Shown: positions 3,497-59,822, counted from the stretch's first letter. The stretch is DNA of 64,000 nt from Verrucomicrobiota bacterium (GCA_039795165.1 JBDKER010000003.1:105220-169219); one strand, 5' to 3'. The notes: a model not told the origin generated them from the letters alone. Translations and numbers: made by a program.

Positions 3497-3585
3497 GGGA
3501 TGCGGTGGACTGAGGAAGGATGATGAGTTGGGTATGGGTAGTTGGTAGCGAAAGATTGGGGTTTGGGGGGCGTTGCAGGGGAACG

Positions 3586-6531
3586 ATGCTGTTCCGTGCT
3601 GCGATATTGGTGGTGTTTCCTGCTGTGCTGGCGGCGGAGGAAGCGGCTGTGGAGCGTTTTCGTGCCGAGGTGGAGCCGATTCTGCGGGACCGCTGTCTCG
3701 AGTGTCATTCGCATGCCGGGGGGAAGATGAAGGGAGGGCTGACGCTGGATGCGCGTTCCGGGTGGGAGCAGGGGGGAGACGGGGGGCCTGCGTTGGTGCC
3801 TGGAAAGCCCGATGAGAGCCTGCTGATGAGGATGGTGCGGTGGGAGGATGAGGATCATCAGATGCCACCGGACGGAAAGCTCCCTGAGGGGGAGATTGCG
3901 GTGCTGGAGCGGTGGGTGCGGGAGGGTGCGGTGGATCCGCGGGTGGCGGAGGTGGCTGGTGGAAAGGATGGCGGCTGGTGGTCGCTGCGTCCGCTGGTGG
4001 CTCCGGCGGTGCCGGGTGCCGGGCACCCGGTGGATGTGTTCATTGGGAAGGCCCTGGCGGAGCAGGGTCTGGAATTCTCCGGGGAGGCGGGGCGGACTGC
4101 GCTGGTGCGGCGGCTTCATTTTGCGCTGCATGGATTGCCGCCGCAGTTGGAGGATGTGTCGGCGTGGCCGGAGGATGCATCCGGGGGATGGGAGGGGCTG
4201 GTGGACCGGTTGCTGGCGTCGCCTCGGTATGGCGAGCGTTGGGCGCGGCACTGGTTCGACGTGATCCATTTTGCGGATTCGCATGGATTCGAGCACGACG
4301 TGAAGCGTGAGAATGCGTGGCGGTTCCGGGACTATGTGATTGGGGCCTTGAATGGCGACACTCCGTGGCCGCGGTTTGTGCGGGAGCAGCTGGCGGCGGA
4401 TGTATTTTATCCGGAGGAGAGTCAGCTGATGGCGGCGCTTGGGTTTCTTGGTGCGGGGACCTACGACATGAGTGCGGCGGGCACGGCTCTGATGAGTTTC
4501 GAGTACCTGGACCGGGACGATCTGGTTACGCAGACGATGAGTGCCTTTGCGAGCACGACGGCCAACTGTGCGCGGTGTCATGCGCATAAGTTTGATCCGG
4601 TCAGTCAGGAAGATTACTTTGCCCTGCAGGCGGTGTTTGCCGGGATTGGGAAAGGGGACATTGAGTACGATGCGGATGCGCAGGTGGCGGCGGAGCGGAA
4701 GCGGTGGACGGCTCTGCGGGAGGCGGTGGCGCGGAGGGATGCGGGTGTGCTGTTGGCTGCCGGGCAGGAGGAATTGGTGGCCTCATGGGAGGCGGCGCGG
4801 GGAGGCGGCGTGGCGGCGTGGACTGTGCTGCGGCCCGAGGTTTTCTGGGCGGGAGACGGGGTGGTGCTGCGGCGGCTTGGTGATGAGTCCCTCCTCGCGT
4901 CCGGGGCCTTGCCCGACAGGGATGTGACGGTGGTGACGGCTGCGTCTGGGCTCAGGGAAGTCAGCGGATTCCGGCTGGATCTGCTGCCGGATGAGTCGCT
5001 TCCTGCGCAGGGCCCGGGTCGGCCAGCCAATGGGAATGTGCATTTGAGCGAGTTCGAGGTACGGTTGTTCCGGGCGGGAGCGGCGGAGCCTGAGCGGCTG
5101 GCATTGGCCGAAGCGTTTTCCGGGTTTTCGCAGGACTCGTTTGGAATAGCCGGCAGCATCGATGGGAAGGCGGAGACGTCGTGGGCGATTCATCCGCGTG
5201 AGGGGCAGCCGCATGCGGCTGTCTTTGTGCTGAGCCGACCGGTGGTGGTGGAACCGGGGGATCGGCTGCAGTTCACGTTGCGGCAACTGCAGGGCGGTGC
5301 GCATCTGCTGGGGCGGTGGAAGCTTTCGGTGGCTGGGGGGCCCAGAGAGTCGCTGACGCTGCTGCCCGACGGCGTGGTGGCGGCGCTGGCGGTGCCGCGT
5401 GGGCAGCGGAGCGAGGCGCAGCGGTTGGAGATTGCGGCTCATGTGCTTGGGGAATGGGTGGCGGTGCGCCTTGCGGGGTTGCCGGCTCCGGTGACGGTAT
5501 GGGCGGCGGGCCGGGCCGCACGGAACGAGCGGGGGTTGATCACGTATGCGGAGCCTAGGGAAATCCGGTTGCTGCGGCGGGGGGAGTTGGACAAGCCGGG
5601 GGCGGTGGTGAAACCGGGAGCGCTGTCGGCAGTGCCGGGGTTGCCGGGGCGGTTTCCGCTGGCGGACGGGGCACCTGAGGGATTGCGGCGGGCGGCGCTG
5701 GCCGACTGGCTGGTGGATCCGGGGAATCCACTGAGCTGGCGGAGCATAGTGAACCGGGTGTGGCATTATCATTTCGGGCGCGGGCTCTGTGACACGCCGG
5801 GTGATTTCGGGCGGATGGGGGGCGAGCCATCCCATCCGGAGCTGCTTGACTGGCTGGCGGTGTGGTTCCGGGATGAAGCGAAGGGGTCGTTGAAGGCCCT
5901 GCATCGGCTCATTGTAACCAGCCGGACGTGGAAGCAGGCGTCGCTGGAGCGATCGCGTGGGCTTGCGGTCGATCCGGAGAATCGGTTGCTGTGGCGGATG
6001 AACCGTCAGCGGCTGGATGCGGATGCATACCGCGATGCCGTGCTGGTGGTGAGTAATCGTCTGGATCCCGCGGTGGGTGGGCCGGGAATTGAGCATTTTG
6101 CGAAGAGTCCGGGGCCGCAGTCGACTCCGAAGCTGGATTACACGGCCTATGACTGGACGGCGCCCGGGGCGGGGAGGCGGAGCATTTACCGGGTGGTGTG
6201 GCGGGGCATGGCGGATCCATTCATGGAGGCGCTGGATTTTCCCGAGCTGGGATTGACGGCGCCGGTGCGGGGATTTTCGGCATCGCCACTGCAGTCGCTG
6301 GCGCTTTTGAACAATGAATTTGTGCTGCGGCACAGCGAGGCGCTGGGGCAGCGTGCAGAGACGGGCGGGTTGACGGCTGTGGAGCGGGTCCGGGCGATGT
6401 TCCGGCTGGCGCTCCTGCGGGAGCCGGATGCGGCTGAGTTGGAGGCCATGACGGGGCTGGGGGAGCGCCATGGGCTGGCTGCGGCGGCGAGGGTGCTCTT
6501 CAACGCGAGCGAATTTCAGTTCCTCGACTGA
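3586..6531 (+). CDS. PSCyt (planctomycete cytochrome c) / DUF1549 / DUF1553 domain protein
   Basis: The internal ATG at 3586 gives the signal peptide MLFRAAILVVFPAVLAAEEA. N-terminal haem motif CLECHSH. A second motif CARCHAHKFDP is typical of DUF1549, and the long C-terminal region is DUF1553-like (WHYHFGRGL..DFG). Confidence 0.85.
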   Translation: MLFRAAILVVFPAVLAAEEAAVERFRAEVEPILRDRCLECHSHAGGKMKGGLTLDARSGWEQGGDGGPALVPGKPDESLLMRMVRWEDEDHQMPPDGKLPEGEIAVLERWVREGAVDPRVAEVAGGKDGGWWSLRPLVAPAVPGAGHPVDVFIGKALAEQGLEFSGEAGRTALVRRLHFALHGLPPQLEDVSAWPEDASGGWEGLVDRLLASPRYGERWARHWFDVIHFADSHGFEHDVKRENAWRFRDYVIGALNGDTPWPRFVREQLAADVFYPEESQLMAALGFLGAGTYDMSAAGTALMSFEYLDRDDLVTQTMSAFASTTANCARCHAHKFDPVSQEDYFALQAVFAGIGKGDIEYDADAQVAAERKRWTALREAVARRDAGVLLAAGQEELVASWEAARGGGVAAWTVLRPEVFWAGDGVVLRRLGDESLLASGALPDRDVTVVTAASGLREVSGFRLDLLPDESLPAQGPGRPANGNVHLSEFEVRLFRAGAAEPERLALAEAFSGFSQDSFGIAGSIDGKAETSWAIHPREGQPHAAVFVLSRPVVVEPGDRLQFTLRQLQGGAHLLGRWKLSVAGGPRESLTLLPDGVVAALAVPRGQRSEAQRLEIAAHVLGEWVAVRLAGLPAPVTVWAAGRAARNERGLITYAEPREIRLLRRGELDKPGAVVKPGALSAVPGLPGRFPLADGAPEGLRRAALADWLVDPGNPLSWRSIVNRVWHYHFGRGLCDTPGDFGRMGGEPSHPELLDWLAVWFRDEAKGSLKALHRLIVTSRTWKQASLERSRGLAVDPENRLLWRMNRQRLDADAYRDAVLVVSNRLDPAVGGPGIEHFAKSPGPQSTPKLDYTAYDWTAPGAGRRSIYRVVWRGMADPFMEALDFPELGLTAPVRGFSASPLQSLALLNNEFVLRHSEALGQRAETGGLTAVERVRAMFRLALLREPDAAELEAMTGLGERHGLAAAARVLFNASEFQFLD

Positions 6532-53074: not shown

Positions 53075-54118
53075 TCAGAAGCGCCAGACGAGCCCGGCGC
53101 GGAGGGTGAAGTCTGGTGATTCTCTGGTCAGTCCGAAGCCGGCTCCGGCGCGGATGAGGGTCCGGTGCCCTGGAGACCAGTAGGCACCGGCCATGAGTTC
53201 GTGCATCCCATCCGGGGAGAAGTCGCCGATTCCTTCCATGCCTACGGCGAAGGAGTGGCTGAAGGAATGGCGGTAGCCGGCGGCGTAGCCCCATGCGGGT
53301 TTGCCGGTTTCCGGGAAGATGGCGATGAGATTGCAGAGAACTTTGTCAGCGGTGGAGAGGTCGGCTTCCATGATGAGTCTGGCGAAGGCGTGATTCACTC
53401 CGTGCTGGTGGATGCCGCGGTGGGCGTGCAGAATGTCGTCGGAGGTCAGGCTGCCGGCTGAATGGAGGTGAGCATCTGCGGAGTCGGTGTGGTCGTGAGC
53501 GCTGGAGGAGTCGTGGTCGTGGGAACTGGAAGTGCCGTGATCGTGCGAGGAGTGGTCGTGCGGTGGCGTGGCGGAAGGGTCATCGCATGGCGGGGCATCG
53601 GGGCCGTAGTCGGGACCGCAGGCTACGGGTGGGGCCGGTGCCGGTGGGGTTGGCGCAGGCGCGGCGGCGGTACTGCGCAGAGGTTTGGATTTCGTGGCGG
53701 AGGGTGTGGTTTTGGCAGCCGGGGCATGGTGGTGGCCATGGTGGTCGTGGCTGCGGGTCACGGCGTAGTTCCATCCCGCGATGGCGGCGATGCGGAGAGG
53801 GAAGCGGGCATCCGGTGGAGTCAGTTGACACTGCACGTAGGGAGCGACGGCACTGAAATTCCAGCCCGTGCCTTCGTCTCCCCCTTTGAGATTGACTCCG
53901 AGACCGGTGCGGGGAGCGACTCCGGAGAATACGCCCGTTTCCATTTCCATGGTGTCCGACGGCTGCTGCGAGGCCCATTCGAATCCGCCCGTGATGACGC
54001 CTGAGAAGGGCACCGGGATGCTGTAGTCCTGGAGGAGGAGGAAGTCTCGGCCGTGGTGGGCATGGCCGGTGGAAGCGCAGAGCGCGGAAAGGACGACGGG
54101 GTACCGCAGGAATTTCAT
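53075..54118 (-). CDS. putative outer-membrane beta-barrel protein with a long histidine-rich insertion
   Basis: I take the ATG at 54118; the track start at 54130 is TTG. Signal peptide present. C-terminal LRAGLVWRF ends in an aromatic residue. The central ~120 aa are low-complexity, with HDHHGHHH and four HDH units. Confidence 0.6.
   Translation of the reverse strand: MKFLRYPVVLSALCASTGHAHHGRDFLLLQDYSIPVPFSGVITGGFEWASQQPSDTMEMETGVFSGVAPRTGLGVNLKGGDEGTGWNFSAVAPYVQCQLTPPDARFPLRIAAIAGWNYAVTRSHDHHGHHHAPAAKTTPSATKSKPLRSTAAAPAPTPPAPAPPVACGPDYGPDAPPCDDPSATPPHDHSSHDHGTSSSHDHDSSSAHDHTDSADAHLHSAGSLTSDDILHAHRGIHQHGVNHAFARLIMEADLSTADKVLCNLIAIFPETGKPAWGYAAGYRHSFSHSFAVGMEGIGDFSPDGMHELMAGAYWSPGHRTLIRAGAGFGLTRESPDFTLRAGLVWRF
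53489..53560 (-). repeat. imperfect short coding repeat (GTGGTCGTG / GTGATCGTG on the plus strand) encoding HDH units
   Basis: The 9-mer occurs at 53489, 53513, 53537 (one substitution) and 53552, giving spacings of 24, 24 and 15 nt inside the His-rich loop. Confidence 0.5.
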
Positions 54119-54197
54119 AAGGGGGAGCAAGGGGGGCGGCGGGAGCGAGGGCCGCTGCCGGAACCGCGGGGTGGTTCCGGCAGCGGGCGGGGCATTT

Positions 54198-54902
54198 TCA
54201 GGAACGGCGCCGGCGGAATGCGGCGAGTGAGGCCAGCGATGCGAGGGCGGCCGCGGATGGTTCCGGGATCGTGTTCATGGTGGCGCGGTATCCCTGGCGC
54301 TGGGTGTCCGTGGCGGGAGCATTGCTGCCGAGCACGATACTGTAGTTTCCGGCAGGCAGATTCCATGATCGTTCCACTGCGGTCAGCGTGGAGTTGTCGA
54401 GATGATCGAGGTAGTTGAGGTCTTCGGCCCAGCTGATGTCGCCGCGGTTGTTGTAGGTATGGTTGTCGGCCCCATCGCCGTCCCAGCCTGCCCAGATCGA
54501 GAAGCTGGGGAACATGGATGCGGTGCCGGCGACGGCGTTGGGGTTTCCCGAGGTGGGGGCGGGAACGCCTTCCTGGCGTTCGAGACGGAGTGTGAAGATG
54601 GCTGGGGCGGTCAGGGAGAGAGCGACCCAGTCCGAGGTATGGGTCCATCCGACGGGGGGCTCTCCGGCGCCCTGATTGAAAAGGCTGTTGTCTTCCCAGC
54701 TCCATGCTCCCACGTGGCGCTGGAAGGTGGCGGAGTCATTATCGGCCATGGTGACGGTCCAGCGGTAGCCGATGCCGCCATCGGTTGGTGGTCCGGCGGT
54801 GTTGGGAACGGGGTCGCCGAGGGTGACGGTGGAGGCGGTTGCTGCCAGCAGAGGCGCGAGCACCAGTGCGGTGACGAGGCTGTGTTTCATGGATGTCTTC
54901 AT
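54198..54902 (-). CDS. PEP-CTERM sorting-domain secreted protein (Trp-rich, domain of unknown function)
   Basis: The internal ATG at 54902 gives the signal peptide MKTSMKHSLVTALVLAPLLAA. The C-terminal IPEPSAAALASLASLAAFRRRRS is a PEP motif plus TM plus Arg cluster. Confidence 0.8.
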   Translation of the reverse strand: MKTSMKHSLVTALVLAPLLAATASTVTLGDPVPNTAGPPTDGGIGYRWTVTMADNDSATFQRHVGAWSWEDNSLFNQGAGEPPVGWTHTSDWVALSLTAPAIFTLRLERQEGVPAPTSGNPNAVAGTASMFPSFSIWAGWDGDGADNHTYNNRGDISWAEDLNYLDHLDNSTLTAVERSWNLPAGNYSIVLGSNAPATDTQRQGYRATMNTIPEPSAAALASLASLAAFRRRRS

Positions 54903-54957
54903 TTTGGTTTCGTGGTTTTTGTTGAGAGCTGTGGGTTCTGGATAAATCGTGGGGATG

Positions 54958-57567
54958 TCACCATGTGCGGCGGAGGCGCAGGAAGCCCGCCGGACCCTGA
55001 GGGGGAATGGCATCGATGGAGGAACTGCTGACGCGGATCGGTCCGGGCATGGGCAGCCATGGACCGGCGGGAGAGAGGGCGTGTTCAGGAGACCAGTCCG
55101 GTGCGGCGGCGGTCCAGTTCAGAACGATGCCGGTGCCCTGGTGCCATGAGAGTTGAGGCGAAGGTGATGGCTCACTGCGGTCGGGCACACCATCGCCATC
55201 GCGGTCGCCGCCAGGCCTTCCTCCCTGGCTTGGGAGGGTTCCCATGAAGGTGAGGGCATCTTCGTTTCCGAGCTGGGCGAGCAGTTCCTGCCGGCTCAGC
55301 GGAGGTTCTGCGGCATGGTCCGGGCGGTAGCGCTGCAGGGCACGGTCGTACAGGAAGCGGCGGTGCTTTCCGGCAAGGGATCCGTGCACGGCGAGGTCGC
55401 TGGTGGCATTGATGCGCGCCTGCGATTCGAGCAGGGTGAGTTCGGTGGCGGCTGCGGCGGCGGTGCTCGCCGTCACGGTGATCTGGCGGCAGGCTGCGGG
55501 TGCGGTGCCCGTATCGAAGCAGAGAACGAAGGCGGTTACGTCTGCGAAGTCGGCTGGGGTGACCAGTTCATCGAGGACGTAGGGATGGACGGTGGGCAGC
55601 GCGAAGCCTGTGCCGTCGTGTCCGAGGCCGAAGCCGCTGCGGGAACTGGCTCCGGGACGCGGGTCGAAGAAGGTGCGCTGGTAAGTGGTGCGCAGGGAAG
55701 GATTTTTGAGTGGCTGTGCTGATCCGACCTCCTGGGGTAGATCGATGTTTCCGTCCGAGCCTGTGGGCAGGGCGTGACAGATGGCGCAGTGGTTGTTGTG
55801 GAGGTTGTAGAGATCGCGTCCGCGCACCGGATTGCCTCCTGCGGTGGAAGAGGGGAGAGTGCGGTCGGGCTGGCGGTTGGGGTTGGGGTGATGGCGGATC
55901 GTGAGGAGGTAGGCAGCGAGATCTTCCATGTCGGCGGCGGGGAGTACCGATCCTCCGAGGAGAGCGTCGAAGGTGGGATTGAAGCTCTGGAGCGTGGGGC
56001 GGTCGCCGCGCCAGTGGAAGGGGGCGCCGTTCTGGAGGCCGCGGAGTGTCTGAGTCACCATGGGGCCTTTCATGGGGTGCATGGTGCGGGGACGCGGGGT
56101 GGTGTCGTGGGCGGAGAGGTTCGCTCCCGCGACCGTGAGCATGGCACCGGCGGGGTCGCCGAGATCCCATGCGAGTCCATCGGTGTCGGCATCGAGGTGG
56201 CAGGTTCCACAGCTCACGGTTCCGTTGGAAGAGAGCCGGGCATCGAAGAGGAAGCCGCGTGCTTCGGCGACCGGGCGCGGGAGAGCAGGGTGGGAACTGA
56301 CAGGGCGTTCGTAGATCACCTTGCCGTCCGTGGTGTTGATGACCGTGAGCGAATCGGATAGTTTCCCGAGTACGTAGAGCCGCGGGGAGGTGGGGTGCAG
56401 GGCGAGTCCGCGTGGGCCGCGCATCTGGCGGCTTCCGGCCGGAGGTGGCCGGAGGTCGGTGATGTGCGTCACGCGGCCGTTGGCTGTGCTGATGCGGGCG
56501 ATGCGGTCCGAGGCGAAGGCGGCGACCCACAGGTGCGATCCGCTGGCTTCGAAGGCGAGCGCGTGGGGTTGGGCGAGGGCCTTGCCGATAGCGTCAGGGA
56601 AAGGCTCGCCGTCGCTGCCGATTTCCGGATTGAGGTCATGGATGGCTGCGATGGTGTGCTGCGGGGAAACGACCGAAAGCCGGTGACGGGCGAAGCGGCC
56701 GCGGAGGGCGGGTTCGGTGGGGATGAGGTTGAGCGATTCCGAATTAGCGATCCAGAGCTGGCCGGTTTGCGGGTTGGGTGCGATGGCGAAGAGGTGGGTG
56801 CCGAGGCCGGAAACCGTGGCGGTGACGGCAGGCGAGGCACCTGTACTGATGGCGATGAGATCATGGTCTCCGACCTTCCATGCAACGCGTGGGTCGGTGG
56901 CTGGGACGATGAGAGCCGTGCGGGGTGGTATCGGCAGTGAGGGGTCGGACGGGTTAGGCTGTGGTGGTGCTGCTGAAGGCGGGATGACGGTTGTTCCGTT
57001 GCCGGAGAGCAGACACACTGTGTAGATGAACTGCCCTGAGGGATCGGCAGCGAGTGCGCGGGGGTAGAGTCCCGGAACCGGGATGGTGTGCAGAAGACTG
57101 CGGGAGACCGGGTCGAAGACGCGGATGAGGTTGCTGCGGGCACAGCTGACCCATGCGCGGCCTGCGGCGAAGATGACGTCGGCGGGTTCATCCGCGCAGG
57201 GGATGGTGGCCGTGGTGATGCCCTTGCTCAGCGAGATGACGGAAATGCTGTCGCTCGCTTCATTGACGACCCATGCTTCGTCATTGGTGCGGGTGCGGAC
57301 GCTGACAGGTTCCTGTCCCGTCTGGATCTCCGTGCGCAGGGCAGGGAAGTCGGCGGCGGCTCCGTGGATATCGAAAACGCAGAGGCGGCCTTCCGTGCTG
57401 GAGAGCAGAAGGAGGGTGGAGCCGTCCGGAGTGATCTCGGCAGGGTGAACCAGCCGTGCCTCAAAGTGTGCCTGGGCCGTCTGGGCATGCGCAGCGGGAT
57501 GCAGAAGCAGCGAACACAGGAGGATGGGAAGCGCGATGATCTGGCGCGATGGGATGATCGGAATCAT
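54958..57567 (-). CDS. beta-propeller (YVTN/lactonase-like repeats) fused to a di-haem cytochrome c peroxidase/MauG-like domain
   Basis: I take the ATG at 57567; the track start is TTG. Signal peptide present. Repeated ..LYV/LWV..S.S..VI.. blade motifs. Two CxxCH motifs (SCGTCHLD, HCAICHAL) with a FHWRGDRPTL box between them. Confidence 0.8.
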   Translation of the reverse strand: MIPIIPSRQIIALPILLCSLLLHPAAHAQTAQAHFEARLVHPAEITPDGSTLLLLSSTEGRLCVFDIHGAAADFPALRTEIQTGQEPVSVRTRTNDEAWVVNEASDSISVISLSKGITTATIPCADEPADVIFAAGRAWVSCARSNLIRVFDPVSRSLLHTIPVPGLYPRALAADPSGQFIYTVCLLSGNGTTVIPPSAAPPQPNPSDPSLPIPPRTALIVPATDPRVAWKVGDHDLIAISTGASPAVTATVSGLGTHLFAIAPNPQTGQLWIANSESLNLIPTEPALRGRFARHRLSVVSPQHTIAAIHDLNPEIGSDGEPFPDAIGKALAQPHALAFEASGSHLWVAAFASDRIARISTANGRVTHITDLRPPPAGSRQMRGPRGLALHPTSPRLYVLGKLSDSLTVINTTDGKVIYERPVSSHPALPRPVAEARGFLFDARLSSNGTVSCGTCHLDADTDGLAWDLGDPAGAMLTVAGANLSAHDTTPRPRTMHPMKGPMVTQTLRGLQNGAPFHWRGDRPTLQSFNPTFDALLGGSVLPAADMEDLAAYLLTIRHHPNPNRQPDRTLPSSTAGGNPVRGRDLYNLHNNHCAICHALPTGSDGNIDLPQEVGSAQPLKNPSLRTTYQRTFFDPRPGASSRSGFGLGHDGTGFALPTVHPYVLDELVTPADFADVTAFVLCFDTGTAPAACRQITVTASTAAAAATELTLLESQARINATSDLAVHGSLAGKHRRFLYDRALQRYRPDHAAEPPLSRQELLAQLGNEDALTFMGTLPSQGGRPGGDRDGDGVPDRSEPSPSPQLSWHQGTGIVLNWTAAAPDWSPEHALSPAGPWLPMPGPIRVSSSSIDAIPPQGPAGFLRLRRTW

Positions 57568-57914
57568 GTGCGTGGGAGGCAGAGCGGACGGCAAGGAATT
57601 TTCCCCGGGGCGCTCGCGTGAGACCGGGGAAGAGTGATGGTGGAGGCTCCGCTGGGCGATGGCGCGGGCGGTAAACCCACAACGGAAAACGCCTGCAGTC
57701 CGCCGGTATCCAGTCGGCGGCCATGCGCACAGCGGAGCACTCCAAATTGGCTCGGACGGGGAGTGGAGGAGAGATGCCGTGAAATCGGCGGCCGTGCGTT
57801 GCCCTGTGGGCTCACGAGGCTGCCTGCGGGCATCCGCGTCCCTGTCCGTGGTTCCGGCCGGGCGTTCCGGCGCTCAGCGGGAAGGCGGAAAACCGGAATT
57901 GGCAGGAGGGGTGC

Positions 57915-58325
57915 TCAGGCTACCGTCCGCGGGGGCGGTACGGGGGGGCTTGCTGCCATCCGGGAAGCGGGCACGATTGGCTCGGTAAAGCCCGCTTCGG
58001 CGGGGTGGGCGGCAGCGCATGCCGGGGTTGCGGGATTCTCGGTCAGCCAGAGGATTTCCTTGGTCAGCCGTTCGATGGAGACCGGCAGAGTGGAGAGGGG
58101 AGATCCGCTGTTCTCGTCCGGATTTTCAGCGGATGCGATTGCGTGGCACAGTGGGCAGGGATGTTCGCCGTCGAATGTTCTGCGCAGGCCTTCCGAGACA
58201 CCGGATTCCGCGGAATACGAGATGGCCATGCCCGTCCACGCCATGACTTGGAGGAATCCAAGACCGCCTCCGCAGAGATGCACGCACCCCATCAGAATGA
58301 GCAGAGACTGGAAGAAGCGGCGCAT
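57915..58325 (-). CDS. small membrane protein with a CPLC motif (unknown family)
   Basis: This is the C-terminal 136 codons of track ORF 57915..59129; the remainder is antisense to the PqaA-like gene. Sequence MRRFFQSLLILMGCVHLCGGGLGFLQVMAWTGMAISY then TFDGEHPCPLCH. The start is uncertain, with an alternative at 58346. Confidence 0.5.
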   Translation of the reverse strand: MRRFFQSLLILMGCVHLCGGGLGFLQVMAWTGMAISYSAESGVSEGLRRTFDGEHPCPLCHAIASAENPDENSGSPLSTLPVSIERLTKEILWLTENPATPACAAAHPAEAGFTEPIVPASRMAASPPVPPPRTVA

Positions 58326-58481
58326 GAACGGAATTCTACACTTCATCAGCAGGACGTCCGGTCGGTGCAAGCACGATTTGGCACTGGACATGCCGAACCC
58401 GGCCACGAGGAGGGAATGGATGACACCGCAGGCACAGTCGTGTATGGTCCTCATGAAATTCTCCATGACTGCGAACTGACC

Positions 58482-59822
58482 ATGAAACGATTCCTGCTTT
58501 CCCTTCTTCTGGCTGGGCTGATTCCTGCGCGTGCCGATCTGCAGGCGTACCTTGCGCGTCCCGAGCCTGCCTTCCAGTGGAGCGAGGCATCGAAAACGGT
58601 GCTTAACGGGTGTGAAGTCCGCCTGCTCAGGCTGACTTCGCAGGAGTGGCAGGGGATCCGGTGGGAGCACGATGTTATTGTCTTCCGGCCGCTGGAGACC
58701 CCTTTTGCGGGCAAGCTTTTTCTGATGAACAGCGGGGGCTCCGCGAAGGAGAAGGATTACCCGTATGGAGCGATGCTGGCCGCGAGGATCAAGGCTCCGG
58801 TGGCCTTTCTGCTGGGAATACCGCGTCAGCCGCTCTTTGGCGGGAAGAAGGAAGATGCGCTGATTGCGGAAACCTTTGTCCGCTATCTTGAGACGGGTGA
58901 TGCTTCGTGGCCGCTGCTGTTTCCGATGACCAAGAGTCTGGTGAAGTGCATGGATGCCCTGCAGGAATGCTTCCGGCGGGAATGGCAGGAGGAACTGAAG
59001 AGCTTCATTGTGAGCGGGGCCTCCAAGCGTGGCTGGACAACGTGGCTGACGGCAGCGTCGGACCCGCGGGTCGAGGCGATTGCCCCTATGGTGATTGATA
59101 CGCTGAACATGCGGGAGCAGCTGCCGCATCAGGTAAAGATGTTCGGGCGGGTGAGCGACAGCATCCGGGACTACACCGAGCGGGGGCTTGTACCGATTCC
59201 CGATACGGAGAATGCGAAGCGGCTCTGGGGCTGGGTGGATCCCTTTCTGTACCGCGACAAGTTCACCATGCCCAAGCTGATCGTGTGCGGGACCAATGAT
59301 CCCTACTGGAGCACGGATGCGCTCAACCTGTACTGGGACGGGCTCCCGGCGCGGAAGTGGATTTCCTATTCACCGAATGCCGGGCATAACCTTGACTGCG
59401 ACGGCAGTGGCGGCGAGCCGAAAGGACCGTGGCGTGCCATCAACAGCGTGGCCGCCTTCGTGAGGCATCAGATCACCGGTCAGCCCCTTCCCAGCGTTTC
59501 ATGGAAGCACGGGGACTCGGGCGATGGCCGGCTGCAGCTGAGCATGACGGCCGAGCCAGCACCAAAGGAAGTGCGGCTGTGGCGTGCGGTCAGTGACAGC
59601 ACGGATTTCCGTGCGGCGAAGTGGACATCGGAGAAGGTGACGGCAGAGGCTGCCGTTGCGGGCATTGCGGTGGAGCGGCCGTCCGCCGGGCACATTGCCT
59701 TCTTTGCGGATGCTGGTTATGAGATTGACGAGATACCATTTACATTATGCACACAGATGAGAATTGCGGCCGCGGTGACGGCGGACTCCGGAACCGGGGC
59801 TGGAGGAAAAGCAACGCCATGA
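58482..59822 (+). CDS. PhoPQ-activated pathogenicity-related protein (PqaA-type alpha/beta hydrolase-like family), secreted
   Basis: The internal ATG at 58482 gives the signal peptide MKRFLLSLLLAGLIPARA. Family core FPMTKS.VKCMDA, SGASKRGWTTWLTAASDPRVEAIAPMVID and GTNDPYW. Confidence 0.8.
   Translation: MKRFLLSLLLAGLIPARADLQAYLARPEPAFQWSEASKTVLNGCEVRLLRLTSQEWQGIRWEHDVIVFRPLETPFAGKLFLMNSGGSAKEKDYPYGAMLAARIKAPVAFLLGIPRQPLFGGKKEDALIAETFVRYLETGDASWPLLFPMTKSLVKCMDALQECFRREWQEELKSFIVSGASKRGWTTWLTAASDPRVEAIAPMVIDTLNMREQLPHQVKMFGRVSDSIRDYTERGLVPIPDTENAKRLWGWVDPFLYRDKFTMPKLIVCGTNDPYWSTDALNLYWDGLPARKWISYSPNAGHNLDCDGSGGEPKGPWRAINSVAAFVRHQITGQPLPSVSWKHGDSGDGRLQLSMTAEPAPKEVRLWRAVSDSTDFRAAKWTSEKVTAEAAVAGIAVERPSAGHIAFFADAGYEIDEIPFTLCTQMRIAAAVTADSGTGAGGKATP

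Follow-up and report, generated by a model that had tools for sequence, protein, structure and literature searches.

A recurrent verrucomicrobial gene cassette pairing a CorA/MopE-like protein with a propeller-fused di-haem enzyme: a probable surface copper-capture module

The window analysed here is a stretch of 64,000 nucleotides from a Verrucomicrobiota bacterium (GCA_039795165.1 JBDKER010000003.1:105220-169219). Between positions 53075 and 58325 it contains four open reading frames on the minus strand, exactly where a first-pass annotation had placed four same-strand genes. In the order in which they are read, these encode a small membrane protein of 136 aa (C, 57915..58325), a secreted protein of 869 aa that combines a propeller with a di-haem domain (H, 54958..57567), a secreted PEP-CTERM protein of 234 aa with a predicted beta-sandwich fold (P, 54198..54902) and a His-rich putative outer-membrane beta-barrel of 351 aa (B, 53075..54130). 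C and B were characterised from their ORFs and the family alignments A3 and A4, respectively; H from its ORF, Pfam, NCBIfam, an AF2 model, Foldseek and a profile search of the PDB; and P from its ORF, profile, AF2, Foldseek, Pfam and hhalign. The spacings of 55 nt between H and P and of 67 nt between P and B hold as annotated, and the ORF coordinates leave a gap of 347 nt between C and H. Reading the sequence of this C-H spacer (57568..57914, minus strand), we recognised nothing in it: no promoter-like or terminator-like site was seen on the cassette strand, and Rfam gave no credible match. The sole Rfam match, P10 (E 0.0055, below the gathering score), falls within the coding region of C. C has an alternative ATG start at 58346; for B, the ATG at 54118, which gives 347 aa, is the more likely start from comparison with the near-identical MAG L001.

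For comparison we used 80 verrucomicrobial genome loci, each with a homologue of H. P was present in 66 of them, nearly always directly downstream of H and often 3-60 nt away, and a C homologue lay upstream of H in 62. B was found in 38 loci, in some following P and in others lying between C and H, and was missing from about half. The adjacency of H and P spans several orders while the flanks vary; the genes flanking the cassette in the window are shared, among the 80 loci, only with L001. Conservation of the gene order had been put forward as a check on the original proposal, and in these loci the order is kept across Verrucomicrobiota. The cassette recurs in dozens of species with differing flanks, an arrangement far more than chance would give; Luteolibacter sp. 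Populi, Haloferula sp. BvORR071 and Prosthecobacter algae are among its cultured hosts. About a fifth of the related loci carry extra SCO1, HMA or cytochrome c genes (18 of the 80 have SCO1/SenC, 17 encode a periplasmic HMA protein with CxxC, and 19 encode a mono-haem cytochrome c). Beside the cassette in the window, we saw no copper-responsive regulator, CopA, TonB-dependent receptor, SCO1 or HMA gene.

P contains exactly nine Trp and a PEP-CTERM tail, in agreement with its first description as a Trp-rich secreted protein. The tail, IPEPSAAALASLASLAAFRRRRS, combines a PEP motif with a hydrophobic helix and a basic end; in the window copy it scores 16.7 bits with the Pfam PEP-CTERM model against a cut-off of 20.7, and 49 of the 52 members of the P family match PEP-CTERM models. 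Four independent routes place P, as a divergent member, among the copper(I)-binding proteins of the CorA/MopE family. The profile of the P family alignment A2 matched CorA (4bz4) at E 0.0034 and MopE (2vov) at E 0.07 in the PDB, and both matches cover the GWTHxSxW motif. The Pfam model Cu_bind_CorA (PF18252) matched 48 of the 52 relatives at E<=1 (best 4.9e-5), with one of them, P0168, above the gathering score (29.4 bits vs 27). The window P alone gave no match to this model, and the connection to Cu_bind_CorA stands at the level of the family, not from the window copy alone. When A2 was compared in hhalign with A6, an alignment of 22 CorA-like proteins, the two matched across 100 columns (Prob 95%, E 3.5e-8). 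Foldseek of the AF2 model of P (pLDDT 81.8) against the PDB ranked CorA first (9.5e-6) and MopE seventh (3.5e-5), at modest TM-scores of 0.39-0.49 that are similar to those of generic beta-sandwiches such as CPE C-terminal, PPC and collagen-binding domains.

The alignment also points to a specific site. In CorA, the copper ligands are Kyn62, His64 and His114 (PMC3912023). Residues W86, H88 and H148 of P align with CorA Kyn62 (W62), His64 and His114; H148 sits in the motif HTYNN and aligns with the His of the CorA-family HFYxQ, which is the H114 position of CorA. Among the 52 relatives, W86 and H88 are each kept in all 52 and H148 in 50. There are also giant P proteins with 3-4 tandem domains, in which each repeat keeps both motifs at a spacing of 63 residues. 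The region of the CorA-family DxDG calcium motif, on the other hand, was not cleanly aligned with P by hhalign. The putative copper site of P consists of W86, as the kynurenine precursor, together with H88 and H148. The gene directly upstream and co-oriented with P, that for H, provides a di-haem peroxidase-like neighbour, and CorA-like metagenome loci also have a di-haem gene adjoining. The suggestion that P resembles the partner proteins of di-haem peroxidases is borne out by its profile similarity, and by the modest fold similarity of its model, to the known partners CorA and MopE. As for the metal, for which copper, zinc and nickel had been named, copper is the most likely, because the kin of P are CorA and MopE, the triad is conserved and the gene order is conserved; the presence of SCO1 and HMA genes at some of the related loci is consistent with this.

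H was first described as a secreted protein with propeller blades and two CxxCH sites, and both elements were found, the haem motifs being CGTCH at residue 453 and CAICH at 594. A signal peptide is followed by a roughly seven-bladed YVTN/lactonase-type beta-propeller (residues ~40-425), a di-haem domain of the CCP/MauG superfamily (~430-720) and a C-terminal beta domain (~724-869). Pfam gave Lactonase/YVTN propeller matches, a Cytochrom_C match and a weak CCP_MauG match; PF03150 scores 24.6 bits on the window H, just below the cut-off of 25.6, and is pre-computed for most of its homologues, which number more than 2225. Both CxxCH motifs, 141 residues apart, are invariant in 69 sequences. The haem domain further carries a DxDxDG...WDLGD motif after haem 1, an invariant HWRGD motif, and the invariant residues H661 and Y663, which are candidate distal ligands of haem 2. 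At this position, the ligand is Tyr in MauG and BthA, Met in CCP and His in the gamma subunit of hydrazine synthase (HZS). These features place H in the CCP/MauG superfamily as a di-haem protein.

The best solved relatives of the main domains of H are the HZS subunits beta and gamma. The AF2 model (pLDDT 90, pTM 0.92) had HZS beta as its first Foldseek match (1.9e-16), and the H profile matched HZS beta in the propeller (2e-12) and HZS gamma in the haem domain (2e-11), with which H shares a CxxCH...GL.WDLGD motif. BthA (6e-7), CCPs (2e-6 to 0.8) and MauG (about 0.1) were matched locally in the same search, and the haem-domain alignments are reliable in the haem-1 region only. We rejected an assignment of H as HZS beta-gamma proper: the NCBIfam hydrazine_beta and beta-gamma fusion models score 32.7 and 26.7 bits against cut-offs of 560 and 1250, the haem domain conserves no third haem-linking Cys (only the four Cys of the CxxCH motifs are invariant), and the cassette has no HZS-alpha-like gene. 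The likeness goes no further than architecture and distant homology. Orthology to MbnH, MauG, CorB or SACCP was rejected as well. The NCBIfam models for MbnH (TIGR04039, E 0.0052, 15.9 bits vs a cut-off of 363) and MauG (TIGR03791, E 0.004, 16.4 bits vs 444) each match ~30 residues of H around the first CxxCH, whereas the CorB-like protein L082 reaches 106 bits with the MbnH model (E 1.9e-30) and 94 bits with the MauG model. Between the H alignment A7 and the CorB-like protein, hhalign gave a Prob of 32%; phmmer found no match.

The two remaining proteins belong to families for which we found no characterised homologue. In C, the CPLC noted at the outset occupies residues 57-60, within a TFDGEHPCxLC motif that lies between an N-terminal hydrophobic anchor and a C-terminal PPPR. 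Its residues P56, C57 and C60 are invariant in the 15 sequences of A3; the CPLCH of the window copy resembles a haem motif, but the family does not conserve its His. C has no Pfam or PDB match, and carries a putative periplasmic Cu(I)-thiolate site. The His-rich loop of ~120 aa ascribed to B is likewise real: of the 28 His in the window copy, 21 lie within residues 125-250. Cleavage of the signal peptide leaves a mature N-terminus HHG(R/Q)DF; the His-rich insert (~125-250) is variable with conserved GPDAPP, HDHxxHDHG and GIHxHG motifs; and the C-terminal RAGLVWRF, ending in an aromatic residue, fits a BAM beta-signal. Full-length B matched no Pfam or PDB family. With the insert trimmed, Pfam OMP_b-brl (PF13505) was weakly matched by six of ten members (best E 0.0017), and the window copy gave no match. 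B is a putative outer-membrane beta-barrel, a call drawn from these weak matches, the signal peptide, alternating hydrophobicity and the C-terminal beta-signal only.

Known systems offer several points of comparison. In CorA-CorB of Methylomicrobium album BG8 and MopE-SACCP/MCA2590 of Methylococcus capsulatus Bath, a surface beta-sandwich protein is accompanied by an adjoining di-haem enzyme (PMC3912023, PMC3621798). The cassette repeats this pairing of a secreted surface protein, here a predicted beta-sandwich, with an adjacent CCP/MauG-superfamily enzyme. In the Cu(I) site of CorA and MopE, two His act together with a kynurenine derived from Trp, and all three residues align in the homologous P. 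Karlsen in 2005 reportedly described the gene order MCA2590-mopE, the same as H-then-P. The enzymes nevertheless differ: CorB-like proteins have ~709 aa, no propeller, haem motifs ~321 residues apart and strong MbnH/MauG model matches, whereas H belongs to a different clade, with its N-terminal propeller, closer haem motifs and C-terminal beta domain. P has a PEP-CTERM anchor, whereas CorA and MopE are either secreted or bound to the surface non-covalently, and P also occurs in arrays of 3-4 tandem domains. The hosts here are non-methanotrophic Verrucomicrobiota, unlike those of CorA and MopE, and the cassette conserves two further genes, C and B.

In the MbnP-MbnH system, a MauG-like enzyme turns a Trp of its partner into kynurenine and so makes a copper site, often beside an outer-membrane transporter; for no other pair has the enzymatic step been demonstrated (PMC11951088, PMC3621798). 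MbnP differs from P in fold and in its site (His, Met and Kyn, with a WxW motif) (PMC11951088), the kinship of MbnH with H is remote, and the outer-membrane partner is a TonB-dependent transporter there and a small His-rich putative barrel here. With MauG, BthA and CCP, H has in common two c-type haems, the haem-1 context RGxxLFxDxRLSxNGxxSCxxCH and, from reading the alignment, a conserved Trp motif between the haems (HWRGD in H, FWDGR in the others); H has extra propeller and beta domains, and the match is local only. HZS beta/gamma of Kuenenia (5C2V) combine a cofactor-less seven-bladed propeller with a CCP/MauG-like di-haem module, as H does, and the two subunits are fused in some anammox bacteria (NCBIfam NF052342). 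Apart from the missing alpha partner, the missing Cys and the low model scores, H differs from HZS in its constant neighbour, which is a copper-binding-family protein instead of nitrogen-cycle genes.

From these observations, we consider it reasonably probable that the cassette is a surface copper-capture module built around the CorA/MopE-type protein, with H oxidising a tryptophan of P. Judged by homology, P is exported and held at the cell surface via its PEP-CTERM tail. The di-haem domain of H would then oxidise Trp86 to kynurenine with peroxide or O2 and thereby complete the Cu(I) site, and the propeller and the C-terminal beta domain would probably dock P. We propose this step because of the strict H-then-P pairing and the precedents of MbnH-MbnP, SACCP-MopE and CorB-CorA: MbnH makes the kynurenine of MbnP, and an equivalent activity is suspected for CorB and SACCP, whose genes are transcribed together with those of CorA and MopE (PMC11951088, PMC3912023, PMC3621798). 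More speculatively, copper captured by P could pass to the His-rich B in the outer membrane, from there to C, which is anchored in the membrane and has its HPCxxC site in the periplasm, and in some species on to SCO1 or HMA chaperones that would supply cuproenzymes, cytochrome oxidase for example. Several findings weigh against this reading: H is distant from the enzymes that partner MbnP, CorA and MopE, its nearest solved relatives catalyse nitrogen chemistry, the window P alone misses the Cu_bind_CorA model, the TM-scores to CorA and MopE are modest, B is missing from about half of the loci, and the window shows no other copper genes beside the cassette.

The sequence is compatible with copper flow towards uptake or towards sequestration, and in one alternative the cassette serves copper detoxification or sequestration, with P and the His-rich loop of B forming a surface Cu sponge and H oxidising Cu(I) or removing peroxide. 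The homology of P to CorA/MopE and its conserved residues fit this equally well, as do the 3-4 sites of the giant P proteins, and resistance systems also contain His-rich outer-membrane proteins and HMA proteins. However, CorA, MopE and their peroxidases are copper-repressed and tied to acquisition (PMC3912023, PMC3621798), the SCO1 of 18 loci is a cuproenzyme-assembly chaperone, and we saw no CopA, Cus or multicopper oxidase genes beside the cassette; we give this alternative a minor but real chance. It is improbable, in our judgement, that H is instead primarily a redox enzyme for a small molecule (for example NO, hydroxylamine or peroxide, with chemistry resembling that of HZS beta-gamma) and that P, far from being its substrate, serves it as a copper-containing accessory or electron-transfer partner. 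Such a role would suit the structural kinship of both main domains of H with HZS beta and gamma and the weak matches to the two NCBIfam HZS models, and the mono-haem cytochrome c of 19 loci could donate electrons. Against it, H is without the third conserved Cys of the triply linked haem in HZS gamma-I, a three-Cys linkage described in PMC12607021; the HZS-alpha-like gene is absent; the HZS model scores are tiny beside their cut-offs (33 vs 560 and 27 vs 1250); and the constant partner of H is of the CorA/MopE type, whose kin are peroxidase partners or substrates.

Two further readings seem to us very improbable. One takes P and H as an MbnP/MbnH-type pair, in which P would belong to the MbnP family (WxW, His/Met/Kyn site) and H to the MbnH family, beside an outer-membrane transporter. 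The logic of a di-haem enzyme next to a Trp-rich secreted partner is the same, and H does match the MbnH and MauG models weakly. But MbnP, which the first-pass annotation had offered as an example, shows no relationship to P. Its model, TIGR04052, gave no match to the window P at E<=0.1 and none among the 52 relatives, for which the families listed at E<=10 are C-terminal sorting tails. CorA and MopE lead the Foldseek matches of P, with MbnP outside the top 50 PDB matches, and the MbnP fold is reported to be unlike those of MopE and CorA (PMC11951088). The MbnH model separates the CorB-like enzyme (1.9e-30) from H (0.005), and the cassette itself has no TonB-dependent transporter gene. The other, already disfavoured, sees no functional unit at all, with P as a generic PEP-CTERM beta-sandwich, for example an adhesin, that happens to lie next to an unrelated haem protein. 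Generic beta-sandwiches do score near CorA in Foldseek, and the window P alone misses the CorA Pfam model. Yet H and P adjoin in 66 of 80 loci over several orders with varying flanks, the W/H/H triad is essentially invariant and aligned with the CorA ligands, and the hhalign Prob is 95%.

In the literature cited here, protein-bound kynurenine as an element of a copper site is described for MopE, CorA and MbnP, all linked to methanotrophs or methanobactin. Our results suggest that CorA/MopE-like copper capture is used far beyond methane-oxidising bacteria, since they would place a site of this type in hundreds of Verrucomicrobia that are not methanotrophs and come from soil, freshwater and gut-associated settings. 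New relative to the known pairs are the PEP-CTERM anchoring, the multi-site giant P proteins and the different architecture of the haem enzyme. The cassette offers a tractable system for asking whether adjoining di-haem enzymes make the kynurenine of CorA/MopE-type proteins, a question standing since the structures of 2008 and 2014, and it nominates C and B, two uncharacterised families, as copper-relay components. Anammox bacteria and Verrucomicrobiota both belong to the PVC superphylum, and the likeness of H to HZS beta and gamma hints at where part of the key enzyme of anammox may have come from in evolution. In its widest form, which we put forward only tentatively and regard as somewhat unlikely, the proposal would be that kynurenine-based copper capture is phylum-wide in Verrucomicrobiota, that the propeller-fused di-haem oxidase is an unrecognised enzyme class sharing ancestry with anammox HZS beta-gamma, and that B, with its His-His N-terminus, and C are two new metal-handling proteins that complete a relay from surface to periplasm. 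If true, this would suggest that HZS beta-gamma was recruited out of a family of enzymes that modify proteins across the PVC superphylum.

Between 53075 and 58325 the window carries four minus-strand open reading frames, which we call, in cassette order, C (membrane protein with an HPCxxC motif), H (propeller plus di-haem protein), P (PEP-CTERM protein) and B (His-rich, barrel-like protein). The CPLC of C (57915-58325; 136 aa) occupies residues 57-60, and the two haem motifs of H (54958-57567; 869 aa) are CGTCH at 453 and CAICH at 594. P (54198-54902), 234 aa long, contains 9 Trp and 5 His but lacks Cys, and its C-terminal region reads IPEPS...FRRRRS. B (53075-54130) has 351 aa with 28 His, 21 of which lie within residues 125-250; the ATG at 54118 is the more likely start. 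The intergenic gaps are 347 nt (C-H), 55 nt (H-P) and 67 nt (P-B). The lengths, motifs, Trp count and two short gaps described in the first-pass annotation were all recovered in our ORF analysis. None of the flanking genes is related to metals: a PhoPQ_related protein gene starts at 58482, divergent from the cassette, and the others encode a FAD oxidoreductase, a DUF3472 protein, a Kbl-type aminotransferase and a LytS-type kinase. Scanning the cassette for promoters, terminators and Rfam families produced no usable signal. Rfam matched Pseudomonas sRNA P10 at 57940-57990 (minus strand), inside the C coding region, but at 25.2 bits (E 0.0055) this match stays below the gathering score of 37 and is most likely due to chance.

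The cassette is real and conserved. More than 2225 homologues of H were found; the top 120 are 49-62% identical over the full length, and nearly all are unnamed or carry generic names such as 'YVTN/YncE beta-propeller'. Scanning GTDB with one genome for each species returned at least 561 relatives, and the best 80 of these loci all belong to Verrucomicrobiota, with labels covering Chthoniobacterales, Verrucomicrobiales, Limisphaerales, Opitutia and Cerasicoccus. Partner genes were counted by jackhmmer on six-frame ORFs of these best 80 loci. A P homologue was present in 66 of them, almost always starting a few bases past H, and a C homologue lay upstream in 62. B was found in 38 of the 80, where it follows P or sits between C and H. 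The genes flanking the cassette in the window recurred in a single one of these loci, L001 (CAZSDE010000101.1), the closest public contig, a metagenome-assembled genome with 96% protein identity and identical gene order including the flanks. The comparison of gene order in relatives that the first-pass annotation had proposed therefore shows four genes that travel together while their surroundings vary.

The public title of L001 is 'uncultured Akkermansia sp.', and several further environmental MAGs are titled Akkermansia muciniphila. The GC content of the window is 59-67% (2-kb bins), and its GC skew, (G-C)/(G+C), is positive throughout positions 1-64000 (0.09-0.41), an unusually strong strand asymmetry without a sign change over 64 kb. 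Because of this GC content and the gene content, the Akkermansia titles look like coarse taxonomic assignments rather than true Akkermansia.

Four independent routes show computationally that P belongs to the CorA/MopE family and carries the complete copper-site triad. An alignment of 52 P relatives revealed the invariant or near-invariant motifs HVGAWSWED, PVGWTHTSDW, MFPSFT.W, HTYNN, WAEDL, LGSNAP and RQGY. Searching the PDB with this profile gave only two credible matches, CorA of Methylomicrobium album (4BZ4, E 0.0034) and MopE of Methylococcus capsulatus (2VOV, E 0.07), both spanning GWTHxSxW and aligning W86/H88 of P with W62/H64 of CorA and W130/H132 of MopE. The Cu(I) ligands of CorA are Kyn62, His64 and His114 (PMC3912023). 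Among the 52 relatives, 48 matched the Pfam family Cu_bind_CorA (PF18252) at E<=1, one of them above the gathering score; the window's own P gave no match to this model. A 70-aa CorA fragment taken from the PDB alignment retrieved a single 90-aa fragment, P0241, which served as bait in an exhaustive HMMER search that yielded 24 further CorA-like proteins. When 22 of these were aligned and compared with the P family by hhalign, the two profiles matched over 100 columns (probability 95%, E 3.5e-8), pairing GWTHTSDW with GWTHxSxWG, HTYNN with HFYxQ and AGxYSIVLGSNAPA with TGxYQFVVGGINPD. By residue count against the CorA fragment the His of HFYxQ is CorA His114, which makes H148 the equivalent residue in P. 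All 52 P relatives have W86 and H88, and 50 of them have H148. An AF2 model of P (pLDDT 81.8, pTM 0.78) is a beta-sandwich, for which Foldseek ranked CorA first in the PDB (E 9.5e-6) and MopE seventh, with modest TM-scores of 0.39-0.49. P also carries, again as shown computationally, a PEP-CTERM tail of the surface-anchoring kind.

The partner protein expected by the first-pass annotation thus has a different identity, since by profile and fold it resembles CorA and MopE and not MbnP, the example cited there. P showed neither a sequence nor a fold match to MbnP, and membership in that family was rejected, MbnP being absent from both the NCBIfam and the Foldseek matches. The MbnP fold is reported to be unlike that of MopE and CorA (PMC11951088).

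Prosthecobacter-type loci encode giant forms of P, about 1300-1440 aa long with 3-4 tandem CorA-like domains (L040:12292-16299, L019:12366-16343, L037:7855-11826, L053:5819-10000 and L066:12119-16444). Each repeat has GW[TS]H and H.YNN at the 63-residue spacing of the window's P, so each giant P would hold 3-4 putative sites. The adjoining H is about 1440 aa long and has extra Ig-like domains. Some giant P proteins lack an obvious PEP-CTERM tail.

The computational evidence shows H to be a secreted member of the CCP/MauG superfamily with two haem sites, and Pfam, the AF2 model and PDB profile matches all support the fusion to a propeller noted at first reading. Pfam gave Lactonase/YVTN propeller matches, a Cytochrom_C match and CCP_MauG slightly below the cut-off. 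The AF2 model, built from 69 sequences (pLDDT 90, pTM 0.92), comprises a signal peptide, a propeller with some seven blades (~40-425), a helical di-haem domain (~430-720) and a C-terminal beta domain (724-869). Its best solved Foldseek match was the beta subunit of hydrazine synthase (HZS; 5C2V_B, E 1.9e-16, TM 0.73 on the target), and the remaining matches were propellers. The full-length H profile likewise matched HZS beta (2e-12) and gamma (1.5e-8) in the PDB, while the haem-domain profile ranked HZS gamma first (2e-11; common motif SCxSCH...GL.WDLGD), followed by BthA (6e-7), bacterial CCPs (2e-6 to 0.8) and MauG (~0.1).

Two readings of H had to be weighed against these matches. If H were the counterpart of CorB or SACCP, it should resemble the di-haem neighbours of CorA-like genes, which we retrieved from metagenome loci. 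The gene after the CorA-like gene encoded a CorB-like di-haem protein in 5 of 5 loci. The one in L082 is 709 aa long, has no propeller, carries its haem motifs 321 residues apart and scored 1.9e-30 and 7e-27 against the MbnH and MauG models, whereas H reached only marginal values (0.005 and 0.004). An hhalign comparison of the H haem domain with this protein gave 32% probability, and a phmmer search of H against it gave zero matches. Orthology of H to CorB, SACCP or MbnH was rejected by this comparison, and the weak model scores, low hhalign probability and blank phmmer search place H, as judged from sequence, in a separate clade within the CCP/MauG superfamily. In L084 (1932-4140) and L085 (6713-8921) the CorB-like gene is split into two overlapping ORFs, which could reflect a frameshift, a sequencing error or a pseudogene.

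The second reading, a small-molecule redox role for H, is possible and draws on its hydrazine-synthase-like features. The propeller plus di-haem module parallels the HZS beta-gamma architecture, but H lacks the third haem-linking Cys and the alpha partner of HZS (PMC12607021). Since both main domains of H best match HZS subunits (beta for the propeller, gamma for the di-haem domain), there is a hint of common ancestry between the anammox beta-gamma module and the verrucomicrobial H family within the PVC superphylum.

Neither of the other two proteins matched a known family over its full length. The C family has basic residues followed by an N-terminal hydrophobic anchor, an invariant Q..AW..M, TFDGEHPCxLC and a C-terminal PPPR, and gave zero matches in Pfam, NCBIfam and the PDB. 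A haem site at CPLCH was rejected because its His varies across the family. Members of the B family have a signal peptide, a predicted mature N-terminus HHG(R/Q)DF, strands of alternating hydrophobicity, a C-terminal ...LRAGLVWRF that fits the BAM beta-signal, and an insert of varying length in which GPDAPP, HDHxxHDHG and GIHxHG are conserved. Full-length B matched no known family, Pfam and NCBIfam included; with the insert trimmed, 6 of 10 members weakly matched Pfam OMP_b-brl (best E 0.0017), and matches of the trimmed profile to RNA polymerase alpha were taken as a spliced-junction artefact. At about 215 aa without the insert, and by a crude strand count, B is compatible with a putative barrel of ~10-12 strands. 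The His-rich character noted initially is borne out, and the outer-membrane barrel is a putative assignment from the strands, the candidate beta-signal and weak family matches. Across the family the predicted mature N-terminus is His-His-Gly, rarely Asp-His-Gly, near residue 24 in the window's B; a histidine-brace-type copper site there would be pure speculation.

Copper-chaperone genes accompany the cassette in some genomes. Clustering the remaining ORFs of the best 80 of at least 561 loci gave a mono-haem cytochrome c in 19 (e.g. L042:3668-4255), SCO1/SenC in 18 (PF02630, E 3.9e-15; e.g. L068:1782-2486), a periplasmic HMA-domain protein with CxxC in 17 (PF00403, E 9.4e-8; e.g. L065:13171-13539), an ABC ATPase in 10 and a planctomycete-type cytochrome c protein in 9. 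No cytochrome c, SCO1, HMA or ABC ATPase gene adjoins the cassette in the window. An ORF of ~1003 aa at 3514-6528 (plus strand), about 50 kb away, is similar to the planctomycete-type protein (phmmer E 1.4e-18).

Pairs of a kynurenine-type copper protein and a di-haem enzyme are a kind already known. MbnH makes the kynurenine of MbnP, and the same reaction is suspected for CorB and SACCP, which are transcribed together with CorA and MopE (PMC11951088, PMC3912023, PMC3621798). From these precedents we infer that H may oxidise W86 of P to kynurenine and so complete a Cu(I) site. More speculatively, the propeller and C-terminal domain of H would dock P, and copper would pass from P to the His-rich B and then to C, at its periplasmic CxxC, with SCO1 or HMA chaperones as the next recipients in some genomes. 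The first-pass annotation knew of no PEP-CTERM partner beside a propeller fusion, and we found no description of the verrucomicrobial cassette in the searchable literature. Several features appear undescribed there: the occurrence in this phylum, the anchoring of P by PEP-CTERM, P variants with multiple sites in tandem, a clade of propeller-fused haem enzymes with a relationship to HZS beta-gamma, and the two extra conserved proteins, C and B. For these bacteria, the cassette may serve copper uptake or sequestration.
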